A stretch of DNA of 64,000 bases from Antechinus flavipes (Eukaryota), in NCBI RefSeq assembly GCF_016432865.1, contig NC_067401.1, positions 190,030,001 through 190,094,000 of the forward strand, in the 5' to 3' direction. Of the stretch, positions 251-22,723 are shown in pieces. Under the pieces are notes generated by a model, which was given only the letters and a program-made list of their open reading frames with translations, ran no database searches and was not told the origin of the DNA. Made by a program: the position numbers and the translations under genes. How positions within the stretch are numbered: position 1 is the stretch's first letter; every line of letters starts with the position of its first letter.

Positions 251-1439
251 TGTCTCTTTATTTTTCCTCCATGTATACTATGCTGAAAATAACTTTATGT
301 CCTTAGTCCAAAAGTTATGCACAGGCTTGAAAGCCTTTGAATACAGCATAATGTTCTATGCACTACAATCTTTTGGCAGTTACAGGAAATGGTCAATGGA
401 TCTCTTCATATATGATAGCCCTAGGGACCACAAAGGGCTGAAGGGACACACCAGATAGGATACTATCCTCTTATCTCTAGTGGACAAACTAGTTGTTGGT
501 TTATTATTGTTGGTTTTCTCATCCCCATTAGGGGACTATATCATGCAGAGCTCCATGTCATCCACAGCCATGGAATTATGGTCTGTTATCTTGACCCTAT
601 TTCCTTCTTAGGAAACCCATCTCCCAATGAAAGCATTCTTGTATATACACTCCCCATGGCTTACATACTCTTCGACTTATTGTTTTTCCTGCCTCCCATT
701 CATCCCCCTTATGTCACCAGGCAAGTAGCAGCAGGTGGACTTAGGAACTTAAAAATGTTCTCAGGATTAGGGGTTTTATAGATGAGGGGTAGAGAAGGAA
801 AGGTGGCCTGAATGTTGAGGAATGAGACACCATAACAGCAAATTAATTTCTCCCTTTCCGAGTCTTCCTTCCTATAAAAGAAATTTTCTTTCCATTCTCC
901 TCCCCAACTCCATTTTATAGTTTGAGGCAGAGTACCTTCCCACAAGTAATATTAATAATATGAAAATTTATATAATGCTTATTACATGACAGGCATTATG
1001 CTAAGTAAGCACTTTACAATTAATATCTAATTTACCTCACAACAATGCTGGAATAGAATTATTATCCCTATTTTACAGATCAGGAAACTGAAGCAAAACA
1101 GATTAAATGACTTGTCCAGAGATACATAGGTAGTTGTTATCTGAGGCTACATTTGAAGTTAGGTCTATTCACTGTGCCACGTAGCACAACCAAGAACATG
1201 ACAAAACTTACTAAGAAGAAAGGAAGAAAGGGATCAGTCAGGTGAAGTTAGGATGGGGTCTGCTACCTCTTGCTGGAATAACCTATCACTGACCCTCCTT
1301 TTTCTTCTTCTTCTTATCCTTCTTATTATTATGAACATATGAGTGTTCATCAATACCAACAAAATAGTTGTCATGTTTATCAATACGAAAGTACTTGTCA
1401 AAACAGAGTAGTAAATAGCAGAAATTATCATACTAATGT

Positions 1440-2520
1440 ATTTACCTCAAGTATGTCCTTAATTCATTGTTAAGGAGTAAATAGTATAGTTAAAATTCCT
1501 TATTCCTGTCACATGAATTCTCCATCAAGATTATCCTAAATTTCTCTCCAGTATGTCTTTATAATTCATTGTTAGGGAGATGGTAAGCCAATAGTTTAAA
1601 CTGCTTGCCCTAACAGATAGCAGGTCTCAAGTAATACCTGAACAGGACTCTTGTTGTTCATGGGCTTATTCAGTACTGGTCCTCTACAACCTTCAACCTG
1701 TCCTGAATCACCAACTTGTATGGAAATGAGATGCTTTCATGGTACCAAAATCCTGTGTCTGGATCCCTTACTATTCCAAGGTCTTGAAGAGGTGTGAGAA
1801 TGGACTCAGAGGTAGACGCAGATTCATTGTGAAAAGAATTCATGAATCCCAGAAACTGTGGCAAAAAAGAAAGTTTTATTTTTCACTAAGAAAGAATTCT
1901 CTGTGGACAAACCCTTAATAAAATCAGGAGATTTGTAAGGAGTGTACCAACAGTTTTCAGTTTTATGGGGCTAGGGGCAATTTGAGTTGATTTATCAGAC
2001 CAAGATCGCCAATTGAATAAGCTACTAGGAGTGGGCCTGGACTAATTTTGTGTGTGTGTGTATTTCAAATGTATTCTTTTTTTTTTTTTTTTTAATAATT
2101 ATAACTTTTAATGGACAGAACCCATGCCAGGGTAATTTTTTACAACATTATCCCTTGCACTCACTTCTGTTCCAGTTTTTCCCCTCCCTCCCTTCTGCCC
2201 CTCCCCCAGATGGCAAGCAGTCCTATACATGTTAAATAGGTTACAGTATATCCTAGATACAATATATGTGTGCAGAACCGAACAGTTCTTTTGTTGCCCA
2301 GGAAGAATTGGATTCAGAAGGTAAAAATAAATCTGGACTAATTTTCAATTCAGTAGGGTTTAGCTGTTCAATAGAGGGTTTAGTTAATCAATAGAAGATG
2401 TTGCCATTCCCTACCAGGATAACAGAATAAATCTACTTATCTTGATTCCCTGGGGCGGTTCTCTCCCAGAGAAAAGCTCCTCAGTTTCCCTCCCATTGCC
2501 CCCCAAAATTCAAGGGGAAC
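1440..2520 (-). mobile_element. Probable older LTR sequence interrupted by an L1 3' fragment
   Basis: Internal ~100-bp-period repeat GTATGTC..AATTCATTGTTA.GGAG at 1451 and 1551, a minus-strand AATAAA, and a GGATAACAGAAT block shared with about 3845. Boundaries are uncertain. Confidence 0.4.
2050..2332 (-). mobile_element. L1 3' fragment with 13-bp TSD
   Basis: Poly-T tail and reverse-complement L1 3' UTR; CTGGACTAATTTT at 2037-2049 and 2333-2345. Confidence 0.9.
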
Positions 2521-3087
2521 AGTATTTGCATCAGTCTGATTTCCCATGACCAACAATGTTCCCAAGACTAAGAAGATCTTGAGGAAATTCAGGCTGACTT
2601 TGCTGGGGAATAATTCCCTCTGGCTAGAAGAGGCTAAGGAGGAGAATGCAGGATGATACTGGTGCACCGTGCTTGGCAATTATGTCAAGTACTAGAACTA
2701 GAGGGTATATGGTCTTTCTGTGATCAGAGGGGGTTTATGGAATTTCTTGGGGATAGGGAGAAGAGGGGGGATACAGGGAGTCAAAGGAGTATTAAAGGAA
2801 ATGGGGAGACCTCTAAGAAGAGGATAGAGAGAGAGTATTTGATTATGGGGCCCCATGCCAGGTTCTTCAGTCATCACAACCATCCATTTTACTGAGAACA
2901 ATGGGCTCTGAAGATGAAAAAAGCTAGACAAAAGTGACTGATTGTCTCAATTGTTCATGGTGGCTGCAAGGGTTTGGTGAACATGGATAATATTCTGACA
3001 CCTCTTCTTTTCCCCAAAGGCTCCCAACTATCAGCAAAGACTACTTGATACTGTTTGAGTGGTCTAGATTAGTGGCTGTAAGAGAAT

Positions 3088-3926
3088 TGTTAAAAATCCC
3101 CTTTAAATTCCCAATCCCTCTATTTTTGTCTACCTGCATTTTTGATCTCCTTCACAGGTTATTGTACACTATTTCAAAGTCCGGCTCTTTTTGTGCAGTA
3201 AAATAACTGTATGGGCATGTATACATATATTGTATTTGACTTATACTTTAACATATTTAACATGTATTGGTCAACCTGCCATCTGGGGAAGGGGATGGGG
3301 GAAGGAGGGAAAAAGTTGGAACAAAAGGTTTTGCAATTGTCAATGCTGTAAAATTACCCATGCATATATCTTATAAATTTAAAGATATATATATGTGTAT
3401 ATATATATATATATACACACACATATATATATATATATATAATCTCCTTTAAATCGGCTGCAGGTTTTCAGAGTGAAAGAATTCACTTATTCACGAAGTA
3501 TTAGTTGCAAAATGAAAGTTTATTGTTAGATAGAAATCAGCTTACCAAGAGACTGACTTCTATAGTAACAGATCTATGGAAAATGGAGTTTTGGTGCTGA
3601 GAGAATGCAGTTCTCAGTGGACAGAAGGTCCTGGCAGCAAAGGGAGCTACCAAGGTCCATCTGCAAAAGACCTTTGTTGAAGGAAGATATTATACTGGGT
3701 CTTAGTGGGGTTGGGATATCCCAAGTTGGCTCATCTACAAGCTGGATTTCAGCTTGAGCTGCAATTTGAATAGAACTGAATGAGTTTCTTTAATTGAAAA
3801 GGGTTGCAATGTTTTTAGCTCAGGACTGAACCAATCCCACCTAGATAACAGAATTAAGCTGTTTGTCTTGTTTCCCTCAGGCCGGATTCCTTATTGAGGC
3901 AGAATTGAAGGAGATTTTCTCCTTCA
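3088..3926 (-). mobile_element. LTR-like element interrupted by an L1 3' fragment (3110-3440)
   Basis: Minus-strand poly(A) signal (AAGTTTATT on plus) and similarity to the 50261 and ~2400 LTR sequences. The L1 insert is flanked by AATC(C/T)CCTTTAAAT repeats. Boundaries are approximate. Confidence 0.55.
3385..3441. repeat. (TA)n microsatellite (others: (TA)n ~18178-18197, (CA)n ~33971-33992, (TG)n ~40171-40194 and ~40247-40263)
   Basis: Read directly from the sequence. Confidence 0.9.
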
Positions 3927-4699
3927 AAGAGTTTTAGCGTTTTGGGGTCCCTTCTTCATACCTCTGAGAGAGAGGTTCTCTCTGCTCAATCCTGATGTGT
4001 TCAGTGGTCTCAACAGTGTTCCTGGACCTCATGGTTTGACGGAAAGGAAAGGGGAAAGTGAAGGGTAGGGTAGAAACTTTCATGGGAAAGGATGTTTCCC
4101 TTCCCATAGTGTGTTTTGTGGAGGAAACCTCAGAGTTCCATATCCAAAAGGTCAGGGAAATCCGTTGTATTTTCCCCCAGAATAAGAGCATCAGTTTCAA
4201 CCTGACAGGTGAATTTGGGGAATAAAAATAATATCACATTTGTATAGTTCTTCAACTTTGAGGAAAAAAAACACTTTCTTTTCAGTAACCTTGTATAGTA
4301 GGTAGTAAATTAGAATTATGTTATTACTACTATTATTATCATAAAATAACCCATTTTAGAGTAGGAAGTGAAATTGTGACTCTGATCAAGTGATTTAAAC
4401 TCTCAGAGTCTGTTTATTCATCAGTGAAATATGGATAGTAATACCTGTAGTTCTTATCTTTCAAGGTCAGTGTAAGTCAATCCCATTGCAAACCTTAAAG
4501 CACTATTATAAATTTGAATTGTAATAATAACACATACAGGAGGGAGGATAATAAAACTCAAGTACTTTTGGTGGAATGATTAGTAATCTAAAATGATCAA
4601 ATACAATGCTTTTTTGATAGAGGAAGAGAAAGGAGAGAAAATAACACATGCAAAAGAAATTTCTGATAGAATTGCTATTAAAGAAAAGGTAATGGATGG

Positions 4700-5199: not shown

Positions 5200-5325
5200 T
5201 GCCACTAGACTATTTGTGTTGTTCTGGTCACAACAAATGGCTCCCAACATGGAGCCCTGGTCTTGTCAGGCCCTGATCATATCAGGGACTGATAGTGTCA
5301 AGCAGCCCACAAGGGAAGCAGAGAC
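5200..5325 (-). pseudogene. Second degenerate LU-domain exon
   Basis: The acceptor ttctccttcag followed by a phase-1 reading gives GLCFPCGLLDTISP*: a C-x2-C-x8 pattern with TGA where the third Cys is expected. It is followed by frameshifted GAIC/CVTRTTQ-like sequence. Confidence 0.35.
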
Positions 5326-5383
5326 CTGAAGGAGAATGATACTGAAGATGGTCTTCTAGTGATTGGTACCGCCTGGGTAGCTG

Positions 5384-5923
5384 TGTTATGCCACAGTTTT
5401 CTTTAACTGTCCTGACTCAGTTTCCCTGTCTCAGTTACCTTAACTGTTCTGTCTCTGACCCAGTAAAACTAAGGATTATTCGCTCTCGGGTTATGAATTA
5501 GCAAGATAAAAGAGAGATCTCCTGACTCTTTTAGGGATTTACAATATCCCTTAAAATATTCCAAGATTAACCCATGATATCTTTACTTCTTTGTCTCTGG
5601 AATTTTTAGGTTTTATGGCTTCCCCTCCCTGATAAAAAAACTTTCCCTCCCTTTCTCTTCTTTGTCTCCAAAAAGGTATTTAAGAAGTTGGGGTTCCTTC
5701 ATTCATTGCTGGAGAATGGCGTCTGGCAGCTGTATGCTGGACGCTGGATTCTTTGGGTCCTCCAGCCCTGGGACCAATATGGATTCCTTGGTCCCAGTAT
5801 ACTTATCTCTGTCTGACTGGATAATCTGAGATGAGAGTCCTGTCCAGTCAATCTTACTCTCCCATTAATAAAATATTAAAAACTCTCTAATCTCTCTCCT
5901 GCCTCAGTTTCTCTGACATTACA
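5384..5923 (+). mobile_element. LTR, family A copy 1
   Basis: TGTTATG...ATTACA termini, TATA-like GTATTTAAGA and AATAAA near the 3' end; near-identical to the reverse-oriented copy at 7509-8045. No TSD is visible, and it is followed by AT-TGGAGG. Confidence 0.9.
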
Positions 5924-6033
5924 ATTGGAGGACAAAAGGCCTTGGTAAAAGTAAGGGAAAGCTCCAGTAGGGCTGATCTTCATCCCTGCTCACTTTTACT
6001 TTCATTTTTCAGGGCAAAAGGAGACATATAACA

Positions 6034-7170
6034 ATGGAAGAGCAAATAGTTAAAGGACTGAAAGATGAAGGGAAAGATCTTAAATTTTTACAGTTAATCA
6101 TGTTAAAATAGTGAGTAAGGGCTAAGAAAAATAAGTTAAGAGCATTTCTTCAGGATGTTTACAACAATGCCTCTGGTTCCCCAGTGGTCCCCAAATCACT
6201 ATCAGTGAATGGGAAGTCTCCAGAGAAATTTTATACAAAGCATGCAAAGAAAAAGGTCCTCAGGCAATCTCTGCTGATACCCTTGTTGAGGTGTGAGAAA
6301 TGAGGATTGAGAGATCCCCTGACAGCAATGGGATCCCCTGGCTGGTTGCACAGGCTTTGCAAAAAAAATTCGCAAACCCCAATTACACTAAGAAAATAGC
6401 TTTCTTAGCGGGCCAGTTCCTGTTAGGATTTTTGCAAAGATGAATTTACACTGAGAAGCAACTCAGTGGGCATTCCTAATTAGGAATTAGCAGAGATGGA
6501 TTGACAGGCCTTCCTTTAAATCGGGTTTGTTTTGGCCTGGAGCTGGGGGACCTTTCCATAGAGGGTCGTGCCCCTGGCCAAGATCTCCAATCGAATAAGA
6601 GATTACTATCTGGGAGTTTTCCCTATGAACAGAAGGGTGGGGTCCCTCCCAGAGGCCTGGAGGGTTTGAGACTCAGCACCACCCTTCCCCCAAAGATTAA
6701 AGAGGCCTTTCCAATCCTTCCTCCCCAAGATTAAAGGGGACACAGTTTACATCATCCTCTCTTTGTATAATATTGTAAAAATTTGCTTATTAAAATCAGA
6801 AGTAGAAGGTAAGAATAGAACTTTGAAAGTCATTCTTGATAAGCAAAAGGGTGGGGGGGAGAATCCCCCCAAGGACAGACTTACTAAAGCACTATAAACC
6901 ATTAATTACCTCACCTTGAATAACATGTCCCATACCCCAGCTGACTTAATTTTTTCTTTACTACATCATTCTTCCTCAAACAAAGAGGAACAGAAAAGGT
7001 TAAGGGGCCAGCTCTGCAGCCTGATCCTTCCCACGATATGTGATGTGCAAGGATGTCAATGGGCGGTGGAAGGGCCCTGATAAGATAATAATTCGGGGTT
7101 GAGGTTTTCTTTTTATTTCCATAGATGAAGGAGACACATGGATCCCAGAAAGATGTAGTTGCCCTATCCA
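6034..7170 (+). mobile_element. Highly deleted betaretrovirus-like internal remnant (gag matrix plus integrase C-terminus)
   Basis: Matrix-like M-EQIVKG..VRAKKNKLRAFLQDV..CLWFPSG..EW at 6034-6260. Integrase VEGKNRTLKVILDKQKGGG, RLTKAL*TINYL and YVMCKDVNGRWKGPD..GFLFIS..WIPER at 6802-7160. All with stops and frameshifts. Confidence 0.8.
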
Positions 7171-7381
7171 AATTCATCCAGAGCATGAAGATAAAAGAAA
7201 AGACTTGCCTATGGGGAATCGAGCAGCATGGCTCCAGCAAATGGCCCTAGTGGTAGCACAACTTAAATTGGGAGAAGGAAAAACCAAGACCTTCTGGAGA
7301 ATTATACAAAGCCCTCCTTGGGTGAGAATTTGGATGGGGAGAATACATTCCTGAAATTCTATTGCATGGTAATGGATCTGA

Positions 7382-8305
7382 TGTAATAGGATTCTTTGGT
7401 CCCCTGATTTTTAGGGGCCTGAGTCAGGAAACCCTCAATCTTCTGGCTTGAAGTCTGTCTTAGGAAACTCTGGATTTCTGACCACTCCTTAGCCAAGATA
7501 CCTTCTAGTGTAATGCCGGAGAAACTGAGGCAGGAGAGAGATTAGAGAGTTTTTAATATTTTATTAATGGGAGAATAAGATTGACTGGACAGGACTCTCG
7601 TCTCAGATTATCCAGTCAGACAGAGATAAGTATACTAGGACCAAGGAATCCATATTGGTCCCAGGGCTGGAGGACCCAAAGAATCCAGCGCCCAGCATAC
7701 AGCTGCCAGATGCCATTCTCCAGCAATGAATGAAGGAACCCCAACTTCTTAAATACCTTTTTGGAGACAAAGAAGAGAAAGGGAGGGAAAGTTTTTTTTA
7801 TCAGGGAGGGGAAGCCATAAAAATTCCAGAGACAAAGAAGTAAAGATATCATGGGTTAATCTTGGAATATTCTAAAGGAATATTGTAAATCCCATAAAAG
7901 AATCAGGAGATCTACTCTTTTATCTTGCTAATTTATAACCCAAGAGCGAATAATCCTTAGTTTTACTAGGTCAGAGACAGAACAGTTAAGGAAACTGAGA
8001 CAGGGAAACTGAGTCAGGACAGTTAAAGAAAACTGTGGCATAACACTAGCCTCAGAAAACTCCTATGCTAATCAAATTTCAGAAACCACCCTTAATTCAT
8101 CTGTAGATTAATCCTTAGTCTCAGATCATAGAATCAACTTGTACTCTTTAGTCTTAAGCTATAGAAGACTAGATAAAGCTGTTCTCTGACTAGCCCATTG
8201 AGAATTCTCAGTGTCAATAAACCCTTTTTTGCCAACTTAACTTGGAGACTGGGACTGTAAATTCTTTCACAATACCTGTGACAGCGACCTGGGAAACCCC
8301 AAACA
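7382..8305 (+). mobile_element. LTR, family B, interrupted by LTR A2
   Basis: Shares GGTCCCCTGATTTTAGGGG, GCCTCAG(A/G)AAACTCC and the AATAAAC..GCAAATTCTTT..GTGAC..ACCCCAAAC 3' block with 15570-16064. The two halves rejoin across the CTAG duplication. Confidence 0.75.
7509..8045 (-). mobile_element. Solo LTR, family A copy 2, 4-bp TSD CTAG
   Basis: Reverse complement of 5384-5923; CTAG at 7505-7508 and at 8046-8049. Confidence 0.93.
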
Positions 8306-10517
8306 TTGTTAGGATGTCTCATCTCTCAATAGAACTCAATATTTAATTAAGGAATTTGGTATTAATGAGCATGGAAAGGAATCAAATAGTTCAGTAATTG
8401 ATTTTAATTTTACTGGACTTACCATAGATCCTCCCCTGTATTGCTATAAATGTTAGCTTTGACAGCTGTAGTCTGAGATAACCTACTCATTTTTATTATA
8501 AATATGACCCTTTTCACAGGCTTTAGGCTAGTAGGAAGGTTGCAATCCTCTAATTGTGTAAAAAAGGCTTTAAATCTGTGGTGCCACAGAGCATAAAACA
8601 TTTCCTCAATCTAACAACTACTGTTATGGGTATATTGGGACAGAACTGTGAAACAACAGTTTCCCAATTGGGGAATTCACATCCCTGTCTGGATCAGGAC
8701 TTAAGAGAATCTGAAGAACACAGTAGAAGTCCCTGCCTCTAAAATCTATGATTTCTAATGGTAGGAGAGTGTGGGCAATAAAAAGAGAACAGAAATACAG
8801 TTTGGGGGTAGGGTGGAGTGTGATCCTTCTGCCACTTTTTTAAACACCTCCACAAATGATTCTCATTTCAAACCAGAAACCCAGGTTTATGAAAACATCC
8901 ATTTAGCTATCACCAGGTAAAGAAGGAACTAAAAGACCAGGTCCCTGAATCCTTAATATAGTGTGGTGAGAGGAAGGCTAAGATCCTGGGTATTTAAAGA
9001 GATGGGGAGTATGTTAATGGTCTGTTTCTCTACTTTCTTACCCATCTTCTCCCTTTCCTATTTCTCAGCCCACATGCCCCCAGACCCATGTAATCTTGAT
9101 AATGTCAGATGGAAGGATAATGGAACCACAGGTCTCCTGGAAATCCAGGATGAAAAGAAGCTCCTGTTACCTCATCAAAAACATGGGGACTTGAAAGATG
9201 TACTACCACTGTTCCTCTTGTCTCCTCTGGGGAGAGCAGGGAAAGGGAAGAAAAGGGAAAGGATATTTCACAAATGAAATGATGTTGTCATCTATCTCCT
9301 AGTGTATACCCAAGCTAGTTTCAACATGTTGGGGAATGCTGTGGTCAACTAGGGTGAAGGTGTGGAGCAAACTGCTGAAGGAATGAGGTAATAATTAAAG
9401 GTAGAGAAAAAAGAGACTAATAAACAAAGAAAAATAAGACCAAGGAAAGGAGGGGGACCTAGAAGAAAAAAGTGAGAGGACAAAGAGAAGGAATGAAGGT
9501 CAGTGAGAAAAAAAACTAATAAAAATATTGAAAAACAAAAATCTAAATATGGACCCAGCCCCCATCTTCTTAAAAGTGAGTCATGAAAGGAATCAAAAGG
9601 ATTTGGTAGTCTGGCATTACATAGCTAGAGAGAATTGTCATTTTCCTAAAAGGATGAATGAATTCAGGCCACAGAGAGCTTCAGGGAGCAAAAGTCCACC
9701 AGTCTTTTTCATAAATTCACCCACACACACACCTACATCCACACACACACACATATTCTTCACTTTATTTTCCTAGAAAGAAATGTCCAAACCACAATTC
9801 CCAGAAAGGGTATTATCCATACCACTCTCCATTTCCCATGAGTGCTCTTTGTGTGTCTCCACCCTATTTGTCTCCATATCTCCTGAGAGTGACCATCTTA
9901 GAGTAATTGTGGGTCCAAGGATTAGATGTTATGGTCATTTTCTTAAACATTTAGACTAAAGGGAACATTTTATCCCTTTCCTCCTAGGACTTTAAAGGTT
10001 GGTTAACATTTGGCTACTTGCCAGTGTTTAGATTAAACCCAGTCTCTTAAGCCATAATTGCCTCTCTTTCCACAGCCAACTCTCTCATACCTCTTCCCCC
10101 AAGCCCCCTTTTTTTCCTGCAACAGAGAAATTTAAACGGGAGTTTATGGTAGGATGAGGAAAGTGTGACACCAACTTTCTTTATCTCCTGATGACCCCTA
10201 GAAAAGAAGGAACATGCAAAAAAGTGAAACTTTACCTCTGTCACGTTCTTGCCCCTTGGAAAAGTTTTGTTGTTGCTATGACTTACTAAGAAGAGGGGAG
10301 GAAGATACTGATTGAGTCTTGGTTTCATCTGTTGAATCCACAGTTCAGAGTAGGAGTTCTCAAGTTTTGGGGGGTTCCTGTACACCCTGGCTTTTAGTAA
10401 AATTCCATATCCTTATTCAATGGAAAACTCTAAATAAATAAAATAAATTCTGGAGTTTACCATGCATGTATACAGGAGTAACAAAGTAGAATATTTTCAA
10501 TTATATGATATAGTTAC

Positions 10518-11367
10518 GACTGGAAAAGATAGTGATGAATGTTGGAGGGGATGCAGGAAAACTGGGACACTGATGCATTGTTGGTGGAGTTGTGAATGGA
10601 TCCAGCCATTCTAGAGAGCAATTTGGGACTATGCTCAAAAAGTTATCAGACTGTGCATACCCTTTGATCCAGCAGTGCTACTACTGGGCTTATATCCCAA
10701 AGAAATACTAAAGAAGGGAAAGGGACCTGTATGTGCCAAAATGTTTGTGGCAGCCCTGTTTGTAGTGGCTAGAAACTGGAAATTGAATGGATGCCCATTA
10801 ATTGGAGAATGGTTGAGTAAATTATAGTATATGAACGTTATGGAATATTATTGTTCTGTAAGAAATGACCAGCAGGTCATTTGAATACAGAGGGGTCTGG
10901 AAAGACTTACATGAACTGATGCTAAGTGAAATGAGCAGAACCAGGAGATCATTATACACTTCAACAACGATACTGTATAATGTATTCTGATGGAAGTGGA
11001 TATCTTCGACAAAGAGAAGATCTAACTCAGTTCCAATTGATCAATGATGGACAGAATCAGCTACACCCAGAGAAGGAACATGGAAATGAATGTGGATTGT
11101 TTGCATTTTTGTTTTTCTTCCCAGGTTATTTTTACTTTCTGAATCCAATTTTTTTTTTTTTTTGCAACAAGAGAACTGTTCGGTTCTGCACACATATATT
11201 GTATCCAAGATATACTATAATATATTTAACATGTATGAGATTATCTCCCATCTGGGGGAGGAGGTGGTGGGAGGAAAGGGAAAAGTCAAAACAGAAGTGA
11301 GTGCAAGGGATAATGTTATAAAAATTACTCAGGCGTATATTCTGTTAATAAAAAGCTATTATAAAAA
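10518..11367 (+). mobile_element. 5'-truncated L1: ORF2 C-terminus plus 3' UTR, 15-bp TSD
   Basis: CWRGCRKTGTLMHCWWSC (L1 cysteine-rich motif)..YPKE..MFVAALF..CP..W; G-rich 3' UTR with AATAAA and an A tail. TSD ATATGATAT(A/T)GTTAC at 10503-10517 and 11368-11382. Confidence 0.95.
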
Positions 11368-11873
11368 ATATGATATTGTTACCTATCGATATTCCCCATA
11401 CTCTTTTACAAGCTTCTCCTACCTCTCTGGGGGTATGCATACTTCAGGTTGGGAACCACAGTTTTAGAGTCTCTATTCATCACCCTGCCTTCATCCCAGC
11501 TACCCCAATCTCTAGCTATCTGATCCCAGAGGATATTACTAGTAGAATGTGGTCAAAATCTTTGGGGTTGGAAAAGTTGGGGAGGAACTGGATTGTGTTA
11601 TCTCCCTTTCCTCAATATATTAGCATCCTTGGAGAAATTTGTTTCTTTTTTCTGAGAATTCTGCTGGCTGCTCCAGATCCAGAAATCATTTGCCTTTCTG
11701 GAAGCTTCCTTAGGGTTTTATGAGCTGTTTTCAAGCCTGCACTCCTTCCCCCTTTTTTCTATAGTTCAAATCCTCCCACCACAACCCCCACCCCTCATTC
11801 CTAGGCTCTACCTAAATCTATTAACCAAATGGATTAAGGAGGTGATTAAAATATCTTTAAGAGTATCTATAGG

Positions 11874-12025
11874 GGCAGCTAGGTGGTGAAGTGGATAGAG
11901 CACCAGCCCTGAAATCAGGAGGACCTGAGTTCAAATATGACCTCAGACACTTAACACTTTCTGTGTGACCCTGGGGAAGTCATTTAACCTCAATTGCCTC
12001 AGCGCCCCCACCCCCCCAAAAAAAG
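11874..12025 (+). mobile_element. CORE-SINE
   Basis: Same head, GAGTTCAAAT B box and CORE segment as 4700. Confidence 0.88.
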
Positions 12026-12393
12026 AATATCTATAAAAATGTAGTTATTTCTAGGTTTCTGAGGTGGCATATGTGGGGATATCCAGGGTCTCAGACAGTG
12101 CATTAGTGATGTAATATAGCATTTGAGGTCCCCCAATTTTGGGAGGGGTGCCATTACTGGATCTGTATCCCAAGGAACTCATAAAGGACAGAATAGGATC
12201 CACATGTGCAAAAATGTTTGTAGCAGCTCTTTTTAGGGTGGCAAAGAAGGAAAAGGAGAGGATGCCCATCAACTGGGGAATGGCTGAATAAGCTGTGGTA
12301 TGGAAGATAATGGAATATTATTGTTCTATAAAAAATGATGAACAAGCTGATTATAGAAAGGCCTGGAAAGATTTACATGAACTGATGCTGAGC

Positions 12394-15140
12394 TGACTTC
12401 ATGACTTTCAACAGTTGGTGGGAACTTTACAGTGGCTGAGGGCCACACCTCTGGTCCCCCCTTCTTTATGCACCCTTTTATGATATTTTGAAAGGCCCTT
12501 CTGCCCTGACATCACCACGGTTGTGGTCTGCGGAGGCCCGTGCAGCACTACAATCTGATCCCTTGCTGTGCACTTGTCCTGCCTCTAGAATTGGTCCTTT
12601 GGGGCCCTTGATGCTGCCGGCATTTGTTGTTAAGCCCTTTTCTCTGCATGGCACATGGTGAGCCCTCTGCAGAGAGGCTGTCCCCTACCAGGCCTTCACG
12701 GGCTCTGACCAGTGAGACTGAAGGACGCGGTTCCTTCCTGTGGCAATGTTGCCAGTAGGCCGGACTTATCTCGGGGCCACCCCCTCAATTGGCCCTTGGT
12801 AGAGCAGCACAGCAGGCGCTTGCCATTGCCCAGGAGAACTTAATGGGGGCAGTTCTGTCCGGCTTTGTCCCTTAGCGCCTTTGCCTACTTCTCGGCCACT
12901 TAGACAATTGTACAAAAGACTAAGAGGAAGTATTGCCCCTGGACCTCTTTCCTCAGAGCCAGTGCCAGGCCCTGATGTTTTTACTGATGCTACCAAAGAT
13001 CACAGGGCAGACACTCAGGAGACATATGTCCTTGACACCCCCTATGATTCCACACAGAAAAATGAGTTATAAGCCATCAGACACGCCATGCAACGGCATA
13101 AAGAGGCTATTTGTGTCCTCCCGGACAGTCTTTATGTCTGCCAAGCCATCCGGCAGCTACCACACGCGGATATGGATGACAGGCCCTCCACCATCACTGG
13201 TCTCCTTCAGGCTCAAGAAGCTTTCAACAGCAGAGCCGCGCCCCTTTTTATCAGGCGTGTTAGTCTCAGACGGACGGCCCGGCCTGTATTTGAGGGCAGT
13301 GAGGTGGCTGATTCCCTCCTTTACCCCGTGTGTGGCCTGTACTCGGTTGCCCCCGCCCATAAGGCACATGCTTCGTGTCACTTATCTGCCTGCAATGGGC
13401 GGCTGTATGGCGTCTCTAAAGCAGAAGCTGTGGCCATCGTTCGCCGCTGCACTACTTGTGCTCCTTTTCCTCCTGCTCCTAGAAATACTGCAACAAATCC
13501 TAGCGGTGAGTCGCCCAACGCCCTCTGGCAAATGGATGTGGCTCATGGTAAAGGCAGAGCATCCACGTAACCCTGGATACACCCCCCCAATTCCTCATGG
13601 TTCACTCCCACCAGGAGAAGTACTCAGGCACCGACCAGCCATCTTTATCACTGCTTCTCCATTGCAGAGTCCCACGTGCACTTAGGACAGATAATGGATC
13701 ACTTATGCATCCTCGCCTTTAGGTCCTTTTGCACTGAATCTGGCATTGCCCATCCCACTGGCATCCCCTATAAGCCTATGGGCCAAGCCATTGTTGAACA
13801 GGCTAATCGTACTCTCAAGAGGCTCCTGTCTGAGCAGGAAAAAGGCGTGTGGGGGTTTACAGGCCCTCCACCGACTCACGCCGGCCCGCTTAGAAGCGGT
13901 GATATATACGGAGAATTACTTACAGTTTTCACACTCCTTGGACCTCACCCCAGAGATGCACTTCTGGCACACGCTTCTGCCTAACTAACTAACTAGCTAA
14001 CTTCTAGCTAACAGACTGGCCGACAAAGACAAGAGCCCTCTCTCCACGGTGATGTGGAAGGGCTTAGATGGCATCTGGAAGGGCATCTGGGTCAGGATTG
14101 GGGCCCCGGGTATGCTCTTGTCATTCCGGATGCAGACCCAACAGCAGAGGAGAGGATCCCAACCAGGAACATCCGGGACCTGGGGAACCAAGAAGAGAAG
14201 GACCGGACAACGACGACGTCACCGCCGCCGGCGGCCCAGAAGGATGGGCCGGATGTCAGAGCCCTGCAGATGCTCCTGGCAGCCGCGTCCCTCCTGACCG
14301 TGACACCAGAGACAGCAGACACAGCTCCAGTGCCGCAGCTGGATTGGTCTGTGCAATACCTACAGACTGATAAATGGACAATGGCGACTCATATGGTGGC
14401 CTGGGGAGGGGCTTCCTCCTGTTTTCCACTTATAGACAATGACTAAGTTAGTGGATGAAAAACCAACAGGCCCACCGGCCAAAGCTACCGAGGCAGGGCT
14501 GCGGGACAGGACTTTGCTTGTATGCATCCTCCTCTGTGCCTTTCTTTACTAAAAGGCGTGCACAGTTGAAAGCACAGACTTATGACATCCTCCCTCCTTG
14601 AACATGACTTTCTTGAATGGATTAAACACTATGTTATCCATGCTTGGTTGTGGCCCCGTTGGGCCTAGTTCTTACTGTTTTATTTTGTTTGCCTTTGTTC
14701 TGTTACAGACACTGTAATCTCATGGATCAGGCGAGCTATTGCCGATGCTAAAGCTAGCTGCATGTGGTGAGTGGTCCCGCTTTACAAGAGCAGGGAATTG
14801 TAAGGGTCGGAGGAGGAGGAGGAGTCACAGACGGTGCAACAGAAGTACGCGGGCTTTGCCTGAGAGCCCTGGAAGTGGGTTTGCTGCGTCCCAGCAGGGA
14901 CCCCTCATGGGCGGGAGCTCTGGTCGCTTTGAGATCCGCATCATCTGCGGGAGTGTTTCCTTCTCTGAGTGACCCTATGTAAGCTGTGGGGACCAGGAAG
15001 TTGGCCCTTTCCCCCCCGGAGCTCTGTTGGGAGTAGTAACTAAGAGTGTGCAGGAGGTCAGAGGGTAGTATGTGGACACGTGAACAAAGATCCTGAGCTT
15101 GCATACAACTGCTCTCGAGTGCTCTGTCATGTAGCTACCA
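12394..15140 (+). mobile_element. 5'-truncated betaretrovirus-like (ERV2) provirus remnant: RT thumb/connection, RNase H, integrase, internally deleted env, 3' LTR
   Basis: Across frameshifts: LHDFQQLVGTLQWLR and PFYDILKGPSALTSPR (RT); VFTDATK..STQKNEL (RNase H); H..C..CTTC and NALWQMDV, GIAHPTGIPYKPMGQAIVEQANRTLK, WKG..W, WGPGYALV..ERIPTRNIR (integrase); an env leader and a TM-like FLEWIKHY..GLVLTVLFCLPLF; purine tract 14786-14798; LTR starting TGTAAGGG at 14799. Confidence 0.92.
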
Positions 15141-15331
15141 GGGGTCCTCAAACTTTTTAAATAGGGGGCAAGTTCACTGTCCCTCAGATTGTTGGAGGGC
15201 CGGACTATAATAAAAAACAAAACTTTTGTTTTGTGGGCCTTTAAATAAAGAAACTTCCTAGCCCTAGGTGAGGGGGATAAACGTCCTTAGCTGCCGCATC
15301 TGGCCTGTGGGCCGTAGTTTAAGGACCCCTG
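15139..15331 (-). mobile_element. hAT/Charlie non-autonomous MITE, OposCharlie1 (OC1)-like, 193 bp
   Basis: Terminal inverted repeats CAGGGGTCCTCAAAC ... GTTTAAGGACCCCTG (14/15 match). The right flank GTCTAAAC fits the Charlie NTCTAGAN target preference. The OC1 assignment is from memory of the family termini. Confidence 0.85.
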
Positions 15332-16162
15332 GTCTAAACTATCATTCTTACGAAATAATGGCCAGCGATCTCTGAAGACCTCAGAAGGAGGTAAGCTTGG
15401 TAAAATTGGTTTAAGCACTGCAAAAGACAGTGACCAGAGATTTCCCTGAGGGCCTGGGAATTAGGAGAGACTGGCAATAGTGAATGCAGAGCGGGCATTC
15501 ACACTGAGCAAAACAAGCAGACCCAGGAGGAACACATTGTACACAATAACAGCAAGAATGTGAGATGGATATAACAATGATTTTGAGGTCCCCTGATTTT
15601 AGGGGGGCTTCTGTTCTAACAATAAGTCAGTAGTCCTAATCTTCTGACTTTGCAGTCTCCCTCTGGAAACTGATTCTGAGTAGATCACACCTCAGTCAGA
15701 TAGCTTCTGGCCTCAGGAAACTCCCACAAATGAACTGCTGAGACAATAGTGAATAGACCACTCCACTGTTCATTGCTGACTGTCAGATAGATAATCTGTT
15801 GGTCAGTGATAACCAAATTTGGGAGCCACTCCTCTGGGCCATAGAACTAGCATGTCAATGATAGAATGCTGGATAAGGGGGTCTCCTCTCTCTTAGCATG
15901 CTGCTGATTTCTTCTGGAACTCAGCTCACTTGCAACGGCATTACAATTATAATAAACTTTGCCCCTTGACTGGGAAATGGGTTCAAGCCTGCAAATTCTT
16001 TTGAGATACCCCATGACACCGGTCTGTGACCCCAAACTTTTGGAGTCCCTTCCTAACCTCCACATTAGGATGGTGGTCTGCAAGATTATATTGAGGAGTG
16101 CTACTGCCTACTGGGATCGGGTAAATGAAACTCAACCAAGGAGGTTATAGCTCAGCTTGGCT

Positions 16163-16553
16163 CTACTCTGATCTCTCAGTAGTATCAGCTGTGCATATAG
16201 CCCTAGGGCCACAAGTTGTAGAAAGTCCCCTCCCAATAGTTTGTAGTGGGGGAAAGTAGCCCAACATCTCTATCTCTGAAAACAGAAAGGAATGTGAGTC
16301 AAAACTAGAAGACGAAAGGGTGAGACTGAGAGAAAGGGGGGGGGGGCCTGAGGACAGAGGGAAACTCGGGATAGGTTAAATTCAAAGGATGTCTAAAGTA
16401 AAACCTGAGCAAAGGTTCAAGTGTAATAGTGGAACCATTAAGCAGGTGGGGTAGAGAGTCCAGTTAGTAGAGCAGGTCTCAGACAACACAGGACAGTCAG
16501 AGGGGATGGGGCTGTGAGGGGCACAATAGCGACCACAAAAATAATCAGAGATT
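16163..16553 (-). pseudogene. Candidate LY6/uPAR (LU) domain exons 2 and 3, degenerate
   Basis: Exon 16405-16553 (AG acceptor, GT donor) encodes FCGRYCAPHSPIPSDCPVLSETCSTNWTLYPTCLMV, with five Cys in LU-like spacing, but is 149 nt, one short of phase 1-1. A strong acceptor at 16275 opens EIEMLGY..TTCGPRAICTADTTERSE*, read as a decayed GC..CC..D.CN motif. Confidence 0.4.
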
Positions 16554-17037
16554 CTTGGTGTAAGAAAAAGCAAAAAGGAATTAACAAATCATAATAATGA
16601 TCTCAAGAGAAAGGGCATCTCCCATCTGATAAGATGTTTGTCAGTCAAAGGAGTGCAAAGTAAAAATTGCAAAACACAAGATTAAATAGTCTGAATACAG
16701 AAGCCCCACCCCCTATTTCTTCCACACACACCCCTGGCCTTTTCTCCCAAAGTTTGAGGGCATCCTGGTTTACATTCTAATCAAGGAAATCTATGCCAGA
16801 AGTGAAAGAATAAATTGTCTTTAGAAGAGGTACTTAAATGCTAATTGAAGGTGGTGGAAAGAGGAGGGGATGAACACCTGAAACTTTTTTAGCTATAGCT
16901 TTATTTGTTATTATAGTCTCAAGTCACAATTATAGTTTAAGTATAGTTTAAGGCTATATTCCCATGAGAGGGTCTTCACTCAGTTAATTCCATACAGGTG
17001 GGAGAGAGACATAGAAAGGAAGAAACAGACATTGAAG

Positions 17038-17559
17038 TGTAATGTCAGAGAAAACAAGGCAAGATATAGATTAGAGAGTTTTTAATATTTTATTTGGGTT
17101 TCTATGAGGGAAAGATAGTCTGGAGGCAGAGCAGAATCCATTCTGCCTCCAGGGCCAAATTGTGACATTTGTCTCAAAGAATCCAGCAGCAAATGTGAGA
17201 TTCCAATGAGCTCCAAATGATCAGGGGAGACAAAGGCAAAGGAGTCCAAACATTGGTAAACTCAGGAATTTCCAAGCAGGTCCCATTAATTTGGTTCTGA
17301 CAATTTGGGGGGTGAGGACCATAAATTCTGATAAATTGGGAGTAAAGAGGGTAGTCAGCTAGAGACAGAAAATCTGGAACTTAGAGATACTTCAACATAT
17401 CTCTTAGTAACTTATCTGCCTATGGAATGCTAATGGTCAGTGCTCCCAGCCCTAATTATCTCAGTCCTAATGGTTAGAAAGGAGTGTTGCAACCAGGGGG
17501 ATTGAAGCAGGATAATTTAGAGAAACTGAGGCAGGACAATAAAAGGAACTGGCACAACA
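17038..17559 (-). mobile_element. Solo LTR related to family A, 4-bp TSD GAAG
   Basis: TG...CA termini; GAAG at 17034-17037 and 17560-17563. It shares the GATTAGAGAGTTTTTAATATTTTATT block and the terminal TGTAATGTCAGAG with family A. Confidence 0.9.
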
Positions 17560-18197
17560 GAAGGAAAAATAAACAGAGAAGGTGCACAATGAAGAATCCA
17601 GAAAGGATCAAAGAATTTGAAGATGAAAGGACCCCAGAGATCATCTAATTCATGTTCCTCAGTTAGCAAAATAGTAATTGGAGGTGAGAAAGAAAAATTG
17701 AGAAGGGGGAAGAAGGAAAGAGAGAAGAGATATCAAGCAGGAGAGAAAAGAAAGAGGAAGAGGAAGAAGACATCAGAGAAGAAAAAGATGCTGAGATAGA
17801 AGGGATCCAAAAACTTGAAGTTTTAGAAGGATAAGAAAAAACCAGAAAAAGTAGAGAAGGAAAGACAAATGAACCAAGACAATTTTATCCATAATGATTT
17901 CACCTATAATTTGCAATTTAAGAATAATAGCACTTTAAGTCAAGCACCATGCACATATCTCATTTAATTTTAAAAAATTCTGTGAAGTTTCCCCTATTTC
18001 CCTACCATTTCCTATTCTCTTCTCTTCCTTCCCAACATAGGTACACTCATTTCCTAGCTCCCACCTTTCAGTCACTTACTTCCAGCTTATTTGAATACTC
18101 AAGATCTTATATCCTTTCCCTCTTTTCCAAAACTACTTTCACCTATAATTCTATTTTTTTTAGAAAGGCTTGAAAAGATATATATATATATATATAT

Positions 18198-18402
18198 ATT
18201 TTAAATTTTTATTGACAGAACCCATGCCAGAGTAATTTTTTACAACATTATCCCTTGCACTCACTTCTGTTCCGATTTTTCCCCTTCCTCCCTCCACCCC
18301 CTCCCCCAGATGGCAAGCAGTCCTTTAAATGTTAAATAGGTTACAGTATATCCTAGATAGAATATATGTGTGCAGAACCGAACAGTTCTCTTGTTGCACA
18401 AG
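18198..18402 (-). mobile_element. Short L1 3' UTR fragment (similar ones at 19590-19820 +, 27170-27300 +, 30960-31077 +, 60295-60445 -)
   Basis: Each matches the recurring L1 3' terminal block (GGGAAAAATCGGAACAGAAGTGAGTGCAAGGGATAATGTTGTAAAAAATTAC or its older variant). Confidence 0.85.
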
Positions 18403-18599
18403 GACTAGAAAATACAACTAGCTTTAAATTCCTCATTCTGAACTTTTACTCTACAATCTGAAGAAGAGAATTGATTGTAGAGAAAGAATCATATAAATAC
18501 TCCCAAAGAAAATTCTAAGTATGGAAGAGTGAATTCAGAAATCTTTGCCCTATTATTTTCAGATAATTCAAAGTTTATGATGACAAATAATCTCATCAA

Positions 18600-19305
18600 T
18601 GTTGGGTTCTTGGAAATTTAATCCTTGGAGAGGCTAACCACCTGGACCCCAAGCTGAGTATTTGAAATGGAAGCCTATTCATTCTCCCACACACTACCCC
18701 AAAATGCCCTGCCCATAGAATGATTTGACTCAGCAACTATAGTGATGTCTCCCAAAGGGATCTAGGGATCTAGGGACTGTTCTGAAGGTGACTCAAGCTA
18801 CAAACCACTTCGAAGGTCCTTTAGTCCAATTGATGTAAACCGTTCTGATCTTTGGCGGGGTATGGGGTGTTGGGGAGGTAAAGGTTGGAAAGGCCATGGT
18901 GTAAACTGTGTCCCCTTTAATCTTGAGGGAAAGGTGGTTCTGGGTCTCAAATCCTCCTGTTCATAGGGGAAATTCCCAGATAAATAATCTCATTCAATTA
19001 GAGATTTTGGCTTCGGGCATAATCATTATCCTCTATTGAGTTGAAAATTAGTCCCTCAAATTCATTTGGAGACTGGCCCCAGCTCTGGGCCAAAAGAACC
19101 CAATATAATAAAACACTGTGTGCAAAAACCTTTGCGAACAATCCTAACACGATTTTGCCTGTTAAGAGAGCTGTTCTTTTAGCATAATAAACCCATTCTT
19201 GCCACAAACCTCGAGCCTATATTTATTGGGGTTTGCAAATTCTTTCTTTTGAAAAGCCTGTGACTGGCCAGGGAGACCCCAACCCTCATTTCTCCCACCT
19301 TAACA
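18600..19305 (+). mobile_element. Solo LTR (ERV1-like)
   Basis: TGTTGGG...TTAACA termini, AATAAA at about 19186, and a 3' block GCAAATTCTTT..GTGAC..GACCCCAA shared with family B. The flanks carry a near-TSD CAA(T). Confidence 0.7.
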
Positions 19306-20130
19306 CAATGAGATGGAACTGAACTAAACCTAGGCTTTAGAGAAGATGATAGCTGGGTTCATAAGGGGAGCAGAGGCTATAAGAGCAAGGACTAGGAAAA
19401 TTATATTTTTTGACCCATAAAAAAGTGGGTGCTGCTTCAAGAAAAGGGGGAGAATAGAGCAGGAAAAAAAGAATGCTAAATACTGGAGAACTAACACAAA
19501 GAGGACATGCTGTTTGGGGAACTTAAAGAACTTAGTCCTTGAGGAATGAGAATTTGGAAAAGTGCATTTTGTTTTCTTACTCATTTTCATTCCTTTTTAT
19601 CTGATTTTTCTTATGCAGCAAGATAATTGTATAAATATGTTTGCATATATTGGATTTAACATATATTTTAACATGTATAATATATATTGGATTGCTTGTC
19701 ATCTAGGGTAAGAGATGGAGAGAAGGAGGGGAAATTTTGGAACAAAAGGATATGCAAGGGTCAATGTTGAAAAATTATCCATCCATGTGTTTTGAAAATA
19801 AAAAGCTTTAATTTAAAAAAGAGAGAGAGAACTGGGAGAGGGAGAAAGAGGCTTGGGAACATCAGGGAGCTAAAACAAAAGATATCTAAGTCACTGAGAG
19901 GAGTGTGTGATGGGAGTTGGCCAGTAGAACAAAGGGCTTTTAGGGGACTGTGATCCCTTGAACCCTTGAATCTTGAAACCCTGAGAAGAGTTTTACCTCT
20001 TCTTCCTCTTTGCCTTCTCTTCTCAGAGTTTTTATTAGGGGCCAAGAAGCTTAATATCTAGATCCCTAAGCAGGAACTAGGGATTGAAGGGAGAAACTAA
20101 CTGAATACTTGAATCCCCTACAGAGCTCAT

Positions 20131-20182
20131 CTGAAACCCAGCAGACCAGCACTGAGAAGCTGAGGAGCAAGAAGGCACTCAT
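20131..20182 (-). pseudogene. LY6G6C-like signal-peptide exon with a broken splice donor
   Basis: 52-nt phase-1 exon MSAFLLLSFSVLVCWVS(G|) resembles human LY6G6C exon 1 (MKALMLLTLSVLLCWVS) in sequence, length and syntenic position: head-to-head with MPIG6B, about 0.7 kb from its ATG. The following intron begins ATGAGC rather than GTGAGC. Confidence 0.75.
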
Positions 20183-20759
20183 GGTAGGGCTGTTGGAGAT
20201 GATAGAAGAAGCAGATAAAGATTTCTAAATATTTGAGATTTGTAGCTAGAAAGGCCCCTCCCCTTCTGATCCAGGCAGCATCTCCTTTCCAAGTTTCATT
20301 TAACTGGGGACAGAGAGTATAGGGTAGAGAAAGGAAAGTTGAAGAGGGAAATGAGGAAGACCCTCTCCCCCAAAAAAGATGGACAAGAACTATCTTAGTA
20401 CAGGATAGCCTGTTCCTCTCCCCAAAATTCTGTTACCTTCTCAAGAGAAGCAAATAGAGAAGGAATTGTAACATCACCAAAACCCATTGTGATGTCAGAG
20501 TTCCTGGGGCTTATAGATTTTGGAATAACACCCTATAGGATGCAGCTAAACTGAATGAGTAAAAATAGCCCAGTCCCTTTTCTTCCCCTTGGGTGAAGAG
20601 TGCAAACCCTCTACACCTAGTGGTCCTCTCCGTCCTCGTGAGGATATGGGCTGTAATGGTCCCCATGTAGAATTTAGAGTCAACAGCGAGGGGTAAATAA
20701 GAATGTGGTCACTAAAATTCCCCTTAGGATTTGGTGTCCAGGAAACTGAATCTCCACCC

Positions 20760-20868: not shown

Positions 20869-22723
20869 ATGGTCCTAGTCCTGGGACTTTTGCTGCTGCT
20901 CGCAGGGACTGGAGGGAACCTGGACGGTGAGTGGAGGTGGGGTGGGAAGTGAATGGGAAAGGGGAAGAGAAACAAGGACTGGGGTGGGGGGGGGGCAGAG
21001 GGGAGGTGATATGGGATCGGACCTTGAATCCTAGGAAAAATCCAAGAATGGGGGAGGAGAGAGGAAGGGATGCCTGGATTCTCCAGGAAGACGAGCTTTC
21101 AGAACAAAGGCTGGTGATAGAAGGTGGGACTCAGAATCCCCCCTTATCCCAACTCTCCGCAGTTCTTCTGGAAGGACGCCCTGGAGATCGGGTGAGTATT
21201 TCTTGCACTGGGATCTCTCAGGCGACCCGCTGGGTTTGGGCTCCTACCTACCCAGGCTGTATAGGCTTGTCTCCGGGTCGCCGCCCGGTGGTCTGGGCCT
21301 CCCCCCCAGCAAATCTCACCCGAGCTTCCACCTCGCGCTTTGCTGGTCGTCTGCGTGTGGTGAGCCCCAGTGGCATTCAGCAGCTGGAGCTGCTCCTCGC
21401 TAGAGGAGACTCGGGGACCTTCTTCTGTTTGGGAACTGGCGGCCGCCAGGGCAATGAGAGTCGGACCTGCCTCACAGTGCTGGGGGACAAGGCTGCTTGC
21501 AGAGCCTCCAGGCCCACCTCGGGTGAGTTGGGAAAGGCTGGCCATGCTCTGCAGTTGTTAGAACAGGCCGAACTTCTCCCATGGGGGTAATACTATTGTA
21601 TCTCCTGCGCTTTGCACAGGGTCGGGCACCTAATAATTTGTGTAATGAATGGATGGAGATGGAAGTGGTCCTGCTGTGTGTTGGTTGAGTTCCTTGTAAA
21701 GAGGACTCTAAGTGCTCCCTTCTGACTCTGCTCCCCTCTTTAGGATCCTCGTACCCTCTGTTCCTGTACCCTCTGCTGGGCATCGGGTTGGCTTTGGGGC
21801 TGACAGGGCTGGGGATGGCTTGGAGACTTCGTCAGTAAGTGCCAGGAAGCAGAAGATGGGGGATGGAAAGAAGGGGAAGGGGTAACTGGGATCGGAGATG
21901 AAGACATAAAAAACTGAGGAGCGGGGGTTACCCAGTGTGAGAGTGGAACTGATTTCTGGGTGGGTGTGGAGAAAAGGGAGGCATGAAAATCTGAGTGGCG
22001 TGCCAAAGGCTAATAAAGCCTGGCTGGAAGTGGGAGGAAGAGCTAAGGGGCCAGCTCTGACCAACCAGTGAGGCATTTATTAAGTGCCTACTGAGTGTTA
22101 GGCACAGAGAAGACTATGTGGTTGGAGGAAGTGACAGGCTGGATAGTAGGAGTCTTGGTTTTCTAATTTTGTGCAAGAAACTTAAAGAGATGGCTGGGGC
22201 TTCCGTTAGCTAAAGATAAGAGAGTACAAATTTGGTCAGAGCCCCTAATTTCCCTCTCTAACCCATTCTAGGAAACTCCCTTCCGGGCTAGTCAGAACCA
22301 ACCCAGCACGTGGTGAGAATAGCTCCTCTCCCCAGCTCCATTCTGTGACTGGACATGTGCCCTCTTCCCATCCCTCAGCTCTGCACCCGTTCCCCAAAAC
22401 AAAAGATCCATCTATGGACACTGAGATCCAGAGTCGATGGAAAAAAGAGACTCGGGAAACAGAGAACTTGGAGGATGAAAAGGTAAGAACTGGAGGGAGG
22501 AGGGAGCTGGAGAAAAAAAGGGAATGCATGGAAACGGTCTATTGCCTGAGTCCCCAGGGATACAATAGTCCTGGACTACATGGTGGATCCCTATTCTGCA
22601 TCCTGTCTTCTTTTCCCATTTTTCCAGAGCCTTCTCTACGCTGATCTGGAGCACATTCCTCTCAGAAATCCTAAAAACACCATCCCCAAGGACACCGGCA
22701 CCATCTATGCTATAGTGGTTTGA
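20869..22723 (+). CDS. MPIG6B: Megakaryocyte and platelet inhibitory receptor G6b-B, 6 coding exons, 249 aa
   Basis: Exons 20869-20926, 21163-21522, 21744-21834, 22272-22312, 22379-22482, 22628-22723; all GT-AG, 750 nt in frame. Signal peptide MVLVLGLLLLLAG; IgV domain LEGRPGDRVSISC..WVWAP..GDSGTFFC; transmembrane exon YPLFLYPLLGIGLALGL; ITIM LLYADL and ITSM TIYAIV at the C-terminus, as in human G6b-B. Confidence 0.95.

Follow-up and report, generated by a model that had tools for sequence, protein, structure and literature searches.

In the window (the whole stretch of DNA analysed here, 64 kb in length), MPIG6B (G6b-B) was identified as an intact gene of six exons with five GT-AG introns and no internal stops, and it was used both as a neighbouring landmark and as a control (Table 1). 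Its exon 4 (22272-22312, plus strand) was observed to carry two GT donors situated 3 nt apart (GTGGTGAG), both of which keep the reading frame. Another gene at the locus, which we take to be DDAH2, has a last coding exon of 114 nt, equal in length to that of the published rows.

LY6G6C (G6c, C6orf24) is a GPI-anchored protein with a single LU domain, encoded in the LY6G6 cluster of the MHC class III region. LU genes are described in the accessible part of PMC6600238 as consisting of a signal exon and two LU exons with phase-1 introns, and the available table of PMC4839075 gives LY6G6C three exons in human and mouse. On the minus strand of the window, head-to-head with MPIG6B and with 687 nt from ATG to ATG, a LY6G6C-like exon 1 was identified. 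From its start codon (20182-20180), 52 nt run down to 20131 and encode MSAFLLLSFSVLVCWVS plus one base. This hydrophobic 17-mer ends in phase 1 and fits the signal exon of an LU gene. The original prediction, in which a 52-nt exon is followed by ATGAGC where a GT donor is due, was thus reproduced on the minus strand from 20182 to 20125.

An LU gene requires a spliceable donor after exon 1, and ATGAGC was found in its place both in the window and in all three of the sequencing runs that cover the site. The context of the site (CAG/ATGAGC) matches the consensus MAG/GTRAGT at seven of nine positions despite the A, and among the 18 GT or GC sites of the first 160 nt the best one agrees at five of nine. 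As a U12 (AT-AC) donor the site failed, reading ATGAGCTC against a consensus that we take to be ATATCCTT. The unspliced frame reads on to a stop as had been proposed, although the distance is 21 codons plus TAG (20068-20066) and not about 23 codons.

The name LY6G6C rests on synteny, on the exon plan and on what is presumably a likeness of exon 1 to LY6G6C. The exon lies between LY6G6F/E/D and MPIG6B-DDAH2, on the strand opposite MPIG6B. This is the syntenic position of LY6G6C, as originally claimed, and the assignment is upheld by MPIG6B (Pfam and exon structure), by LY6G6F (through the protein P0002, described below) and by the gene order of camel, LY6G6C-D-E-F (PMC6829570 Table S8, as far as available).

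Table 1. Features identified at the LY6G6 locus of the window (positions are those of the whole stretch)
Feature	Positions	Strand	Details
LY6G6F exon 1, signal peptide	657..720	+	donor CAG/GCAAGT; match to P0002 aa1-22 reached by 0/100 shuffles
LY6G6F exon 2, Ig V-set	1699..2731	+	three aligned stops; donor GG; frameshift near 1716; about 730 nt inserted
LY6G6F exon 3	3016..4208	+	one in-frame stop; interrupted by an insertion of about 930 nt
ERV in LY6G6F span, its two LTR copies inverted relative to each other	5383..8046		Gag_p10 E 0.00097; IN_DBD_C E 3.5e-07
LY6G6F last exon	8856..8920	+	acceptor AA; far end of the LY6G6C/D/E interval
Retrovirus-like pol/integrase remnant in LY6G6 interval	12400..15120	+	borders approximate; broken ORFs
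Candidate decayed LY6G6C exon 2	16740..16820	-	AG 16820-16819; phase-1 NLFFHFWHRFP*LECKPGC; in-frame TGA
LTR-like insertion, former intron 1	17035..17490		upper border by eye; 17035-17094 88% match to LTR end 5867-5926
SINE-like repeat, former intron 1	18178..18404		88-93% identity to several window copies
LTR-like insertion, former intron 1	18605..19308		borders partly by eye
SINE-like repeat, former intron 1	19563..19820		86% identity to 55609-55848
Unspliced read-through to stop	20066..20130	-	38-aa ORF overall
Weak cryptic GT, in phase	20116..20121	-	TCT/GTAGGG; 9 nt downstream; 4/9 consensus matches
Dead 5' splice site ATGAGC	20125..20130	-	+1 is A (plus-strand T at 20130)
LY6G6C-like exon 1, signal peptide	20131..20182	-	52 nt; phase-1 end
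MPIG6B (G6b-B)	20869..22723	+	Pfam G6B E 3.6e-43

Remains of LY6G6F

According to the available part of PMC4839075, LY6G6F (G6f) is a receptor of the Ig superfamily and binds GRB2/GRB7. When an Ig-like frame that contains a stop (plus strand, 2540-2737) was searched with HMMER, 38 proteins came within an E value of 0.001. The top match was P0002 (303 aa, 67% identity, E 5e-19), an intact protein with a V-set domain according to Pfam. Another protein, P0006, is a fusion of a V-set and an LU domain and was named by likeness. We take P0002 to be of the LY6G6F type, partly from its likeness to P0006.

P0002 was found to map in order on the plus strand to 657-720, 1699-1775, 2510-2731, 3016-3042, 3974-4207 and 8861-8911. 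Five of the six exons of LY6G6F were recognisable in order, with aligned pieces that are 59-100% identical to P0002. Exon 2 survives as two pieces, aa45-64 at 1716-1775 and aa59-132 at 2510-2731 (E 3e-22), and so does exon 3, with aa131-139 at 3016-3042 and aa142-219 at 3974-4207 (E 1e-29). At the last exon (8861-8911) all 17 residues are identical to aa278-294, a match reached by none of 60 shuffles. The donor of exon 1 (721-722, plus strand) is GC, either natural or decayed from GT.

LY6G6F (657-8920, plus strand) is a pseudogene: its reading frame is shifted once and meets four aligned stops (a fifth falls in a poorly aligned part), two of its splice sites are dead, and both exon 2 and exon 3 carry inserted DNA. 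The identity of its last exon exceeds the 59-70% of the larger pieces even though the acceptor is AA; this exon may have been under selection for longer, or may be used in another transcript. A transmembrane exon was not detectable in the LY6G6F span, and a place for it antisense to a frame at minus 5235 was unsupported (81/100, 25/40 and 35/100 shuffles). The motif CCDQNNTN in that same minus 5235 frame, which had been considered as a remnant of LY6G6C exon 3 (6/200 shuffles, in one of four tests), was rejected for its location inside the LY6G6F span, beyond 8861. Likewise, an ORF at 8957-9277 was rejected as LY6G6F exon 3, that exon being placed at 3016-4207 by P0002.

Published antechinus 'LY6G6F' rows in the accessible sheets of PMC9618407 measure 186 and 195 nt, lie 1267 nt apart and are situated 20,824 nt from DDAH2. 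The two largest LY6G6F remnants of the window are separated by 1243 nt and lie at a distance of 20,460 nt from DDAH2, and in koala about 310 nt separate the same exons (PMC9618407). We infer that the published antechinus assembly has the same broken LY6G6F anatomy and that the window derives from a marsupial of dasyurid type. LY6G6C itself has rows, with exons 2-3 annotated, in five of the seven sheets (two platypus assemblies, koala, woylie and wombat) and none in the antechinus and numbat sheets, as far as these are available. This absence is weak evidence because antechinus LY6G5B is also missing there, yet is present in the accessible part of an Antechinus expression table (PMC9290055). 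For the opossum scaffold, the available part of PMC1351924 reports that LY6G6D was not found, and LY6G6C is not on its list of missing genes.

Such annotation bears on the possibility that duplication or transposition has left an intact copy of LY6G6C (and of LY6G6F) at another place in the genome, with the present locus dead. The range searched here was the 64-kb window, and the accessible Antechinus expression tables hold values for a LY6G6F gene model, with low counts and at least one differential-expression entry, in ovary (PMC9290055). These counts would, however, be explained by a transcribed LY6G6F pseudogene, and the only antechinus LY6G6 rows in the published sheets, as far as available, are those of this locus with the same two-piece anatomy, LY6G6C being listed nowhere. 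A second, intact copy is accordingly considered unlikely.

Search for LU exons in the LY6G6 interval

Exons 2 and 3 of LY6G6C must fall in 8920-20130, the interval from the exon-1 donor to the last exon of LY6G6F, because the gene order is LY6G6C-D-E-F and LY6G6F was mapped. No intact LU exon was found in this interval by a scan of all six frames for the cysteine pattern, and two exons of an 8-10-cysteine LU domain ending in CCxxxxCN were found on neither strand. Motif scans for CHSCYK.. and CCNKDNCN, the motifs named in the original prediction, gave no intact exon 2 or 3. Pfam returned no LU-family match in 110 frames (58 + 52), a coverage that left out minus 7531-8278 and 12931-14399 and plus 10602-11300, 12404-12923 and 14444-15100, the plus-strand stretches being gaps inside 8920-20130. 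As a positive control, an LU piece of about the size of exon 3 was detected by Pfam within P0006 (E 3e-05). The six-frame, motif and Pfam scans therefore bear out the claim that no intact exon 2 or 3 lies downstream. No exon-3 remnant passed any of the motif scans and shuffle tests, no GPI signal exon was found, and neither LY6G6D nor LY6G6E was recovered in intact form. Word-index protein searches also gave no match, even for the LY6G6F piece that HMMER matched at 5e-19, and these blanks carry no weight because the method missed that piece.

A candidate for a decayed exon 2 was identified on the minus strand. Five single-base changes separate the frame at 16818 from CHSCYK, neither cysteine of the motif survives, and an AG precedes the site by 11 nt. 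A filter for a decayed CHSCYK with an AG was passed by three sites, and 18-40 of 150 shuffles gave at least one; judged by sequence match alone, the putative exon-2 remnant is not significant. Its spacing does fit. In the diprotodont marsupials of PMC9618407, LY6G6C exons 2-3 are annotated about 1.7 kb from the corresponding position, and the rows available there place the start of exon 2 at 4711 nt in koala, 4772 nt in woylie and 4730 nt in wombat, measured from where the DDAH2 coding sequence ends. The distance from the donor to the DDAH2 stop in the window is 3061 nt, so that an intron of 1,650-1,710 nt would be predicted if this spacing were kept. From the donor to 16818 there are 3312 nt, or about 1,670 nt once four insertions (258, about 700, 227 and about 455 nt) are subtracted, a comparison made after the fact and with two insertion borders set partly by eye. 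The frame at 16818 is probably the remnant of LY6G6C exon 2, a good lead and no proof.

Other frames of the interval were considered as LY6G6 remnants. A stop-free frame at minus 16555-16430 has five cysteines in LU-like spacing, and a strong polypyrimidine-AG acceptor is situated at 16275 (minus 16275-16040), 155 nt beyond it. Neither gave a match in the protein collection, Pfam or PDB, and the ESM Atlas value was 0.79. There may be a resemblance to LY6G6E, and the two are possibly an LY6G6 exon remnant. Candidates of LY6G6D type were obtained with the eutherian-type tail of P0006. One of these, at plus 11451, was equalled by 2/40 ungapped and 16/100 gapped shuffles and had no LU-region match by pairwise BLASTP; another, at plus 19496, had an E value of 0.13 and 4/60 shuffles. 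At 11352-11723 (plus strand), a 123-aa open frame, which in its middle part resembles the beginning of an exon 3 of LY6G6D type at these same shuffle values (2/40 and 16/100) and which has a hydrophobic end run, lacks the LU cysteines. The cysteine-dense frame at minus 15554-15480 (CCYCVQCVPPGSACFAQCECPLCIHYC), with a weak B-box match (E 0.091), is probably repeat-derived, and part of it matches 61434-61489.

Among the repeats of this region, the LTR-like insertion at 18605..19308 gave patchy matches of 76-94%, its part 18896-19305 matching 6284-6755, and the pol remnant gave weak Pfam matches to rve_3 (E 0.11), Integrase_Zn (E 0.21) and RNase_H (E 0.28). Of the 11,211 nt of the interval, 1781 belong to repeats that have a counterpart in the window, the single-copy pol-like remnant not being counted. 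Within the ERV in the LY6G6F span, the LTR copies (5383-5931 and 7501-8046, 550 nt) are 94.9% alike, and the further LTR-like piece at 6284-6755 lies between them, indicating nested or rearranged insertions. As the divergence of the LTRs is similar to that between organisms A and E (see below), the ERV insertion cannot be placed before the donor change. The proposed coincidence of the loss with an ERV invasion was consequently not borne out, and neither was a causal role for ERVs; with LTRs 94.9% alike, accumulation after the loss fits equally, and the accumulation of repeats after gene loss is the simpler reading.

The donor base and the read-through frame in other samples

Four of 20 sequencing runs (from six organisms) were compared with the window over 19840-20520, and three of the four cover 20130. 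These were a second sample of organism A, the organism of the window (X2; one contig, 6 other letters in 681), a run of organism E (X8; one contig, 31 other letters in 681) and a metatranscriptomic RNA library of organism F (X19; one 256-nt contig at a depth of 2.9), the fourth (X4, organism C) giving no cover at 20130. Organisms E and F differ from the window by about 4%. At 20130 no other letter was found in any of the three covering runs (organisms A, E and F). In the read check set beforehand, an intact GT donor was thus seen in none of them, and the A of the donor is neither an assembly error nor a private allele. Since the A is common to organisms A, E and F, the change predates their split. 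About 45 nt upstream of the ATG of exon 1, after 20226, organism E (and F too, by a loose end) was observed to carry 26 nt that are missing from the window, and organism E is without 15 nt of the window (20277-20291).

The start, frame and stop of the ORF were kept in organisms E and F. Differences in the ORF numbered 4/117 in organism E, against 23/564 in the flanks (Fisher p=1.0), and 5/117 in organism F, against 12/296; three of the four and three of the five, respectively, change a residue. The former coding sequence therefore appears to change at the rate of its flanks, over 117 nt only. The 70 nt around the donor (20077-20146) showed no difference in any run, for which the chance is about 0.06 at 4% divergence, and this stretch is the sole hint of constraint.

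A gene that still works, splicing by the in-phase GT 9 nt downstream (or by the AT) to diverged or distant LU exons, is considered very improbable. A phase-1 GT is indeed present at 20121, and organisms A, E and F show no differences over 20077-20146. Nevertheless, this GT agrees with the consensus at only four of nine positions, and the AT site is without the U12 donor consensus. LY6G6F bounds the interval, in which the cysteine pattern of an intact LU exon was not found. Furthermore, no spliced joint at the cryptic GT (20116..20121) was seen in the compared contigs, and the contig from the RNA library of organism F crosses both the donor and the cryptic GT unspliced. That contig may be genomic carry-over and uninformative on splicing, because the same library also covers DNA upstream of exon 1.

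It is just as improbable that the 38-aa ORF has been co-opted, either as a secreted micropeptide (a 17-aa signal and a 21-aa peptide) or as a stable intron-retaining RNA. The conserved start, frame and stop in organisms A, E and F would agree with this, and stable intron-retaining transcripts have been reported for LY6G5B and LY6G6D in the accessible part of PMC2562388. The retained introns described there have working splice sites, however, and the ORF of the window is substituted at the rate of its flanks with mostly residue-changing differences. In the ESM Atlas, no look-alike of the read-through peptide rose above chance level (best 0.76).

Slightly less credible still is that the exon is not LY6G6C and represents either some other decayed signal exon or a hydrophobic ORF that arose by chance. 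No match of the exon to a named protein was obtained by word-index or ESM Atlas searching, whereas its position and strand, its length of 52 nt with a phase-1 end and its near-consensus donor context are all in keeping with LY6G6C, and its distance from the predicted exon 2 agrees with three marsupials. An assembly error or private polymorphism at 20130 can be dismissed, given the same letter in a second sample and two other organisms and the presence of 72/72 sampled words of 19960-20700 in the likely source run (X1), even though contigs drop rare alleles and X1 stood outside the comparison at 20130.

Interpretation and comparison with known systems

The exon is best explained as the surviving exon of a unitary pseudogene, the orthologue of LY6G6C, within an LY6G6 cluster that decayed in the ancestor of organisms A, E and F, a reading to which we assign a probability of about 0.8. 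As expected of a unitary pseudogene, disabling lesions were found at the ancestral locus, and that of the donor is the same across the individuals and organisms compared. The pseudogenisation of LY6G6C that had been predicted is retained, with a dead, shared donor and no intact LU exons in a closed interval; that it is narrowly lineage-specific is not, as AT was found in organisms A, E and F. Similarly, the loss stands, but it extends beyond a single gene: LY6G6F, at the opposite end of the interval, is far more visibly broken.

Under this explanation, selection on the LY6G6 cluster would have lapsed in the common ancestor, after which exons 2 and 3 would have decayed and repeats would have accumulated. 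Without a GT the signal exon could not be joined to LU exons, and any transcript would yield a 38-aa dead-end product at most. The change of the donor may have been one of many neutral later hits and not necessarily the first, and exon 1 may have escaped deletion by chance or through its closeness (less than 700 nt) to the start of MPIG6B. Decay of the cluster is probably old and shared and not a recent species-specific event, although exon 1 shows little decay for a pseudogene of such age.

A wider reading, held at even odds, is that the ancestor of carnivorous marsupials (dasyurids, perhaps all Dasyuromorphia) lost all of LY6G6C, LY6G6D, LY6G6E and G6f and kept the flanking inhibitory platelet receptor G6b-B. 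No clear function is known for the LY6G6 genes. For LY6G6C, D, E or F, no knockouts are listed in the accessible part of a 2016 review (PMC4839075). If the wider reading is true, these animals would amount to natural knockouts of four genes for which no knockout phenotype is known, and the published Antechinus 'LY6G6F' gene models would be pseudogenes; homology-based LY6G6F annotations in such genomes may then be dead genes. A lineage without LY6G6 genes would also offer a comparative handle on skin, mucosa and platelet traits against koala or wombat, in which the genes are kept. The mechanism is ordinary pseudogenisation and is not new, and the comparative interest is moderate.

Genome-wide loss tables such as TOGA may already contain the LY6G6 loss. 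Full-text literature searching, which takes in few subscription papers, returned no report of LY6G6 loss in marsupials (for broader queries, among the matches listed), and searches for LY6G6C with Tasmanian devil, LY6G6F with gene loss and opossum MHC class III with LY6G6 gave no matches. The accessible text and supplement of PMC12866920 hold no mention of LY6, and the available part of PMC3528668 holds nothing relevant. The gene content of MHC class III is described as highly conserved between marsupials and eutherians in the accessible part of PMC1351924.

In comparison with LY6G6C as known, the locus shares the position beside MPIG6B/DDAH2, the strand opposite MPIG6B and a phase-1 signal-peptide exon, and differs in having no GT donor, no intact LU exons and no detectable GPI signal exon, so that no LU protein is possible. 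LY6G6F of the window departs from the intact P0002 by its four aligned stops, its frameshift, its two dead splice sites and the lack of a detectable transmembrane exon. Lineage-restricted loss of a single-LU gene has precedents in the LY6G6E pseudogene of human (PMC6829570) and the CD59 pseudogene of guinea pig (PMC6600238), as described in the available parts of these sources, and the former indicates that members of the LY6G6 cluster are dispensable in some mammals. Unlike these losses, the one described here involves LY6G6C and LY6G6F together, and apparently the whole cluster.
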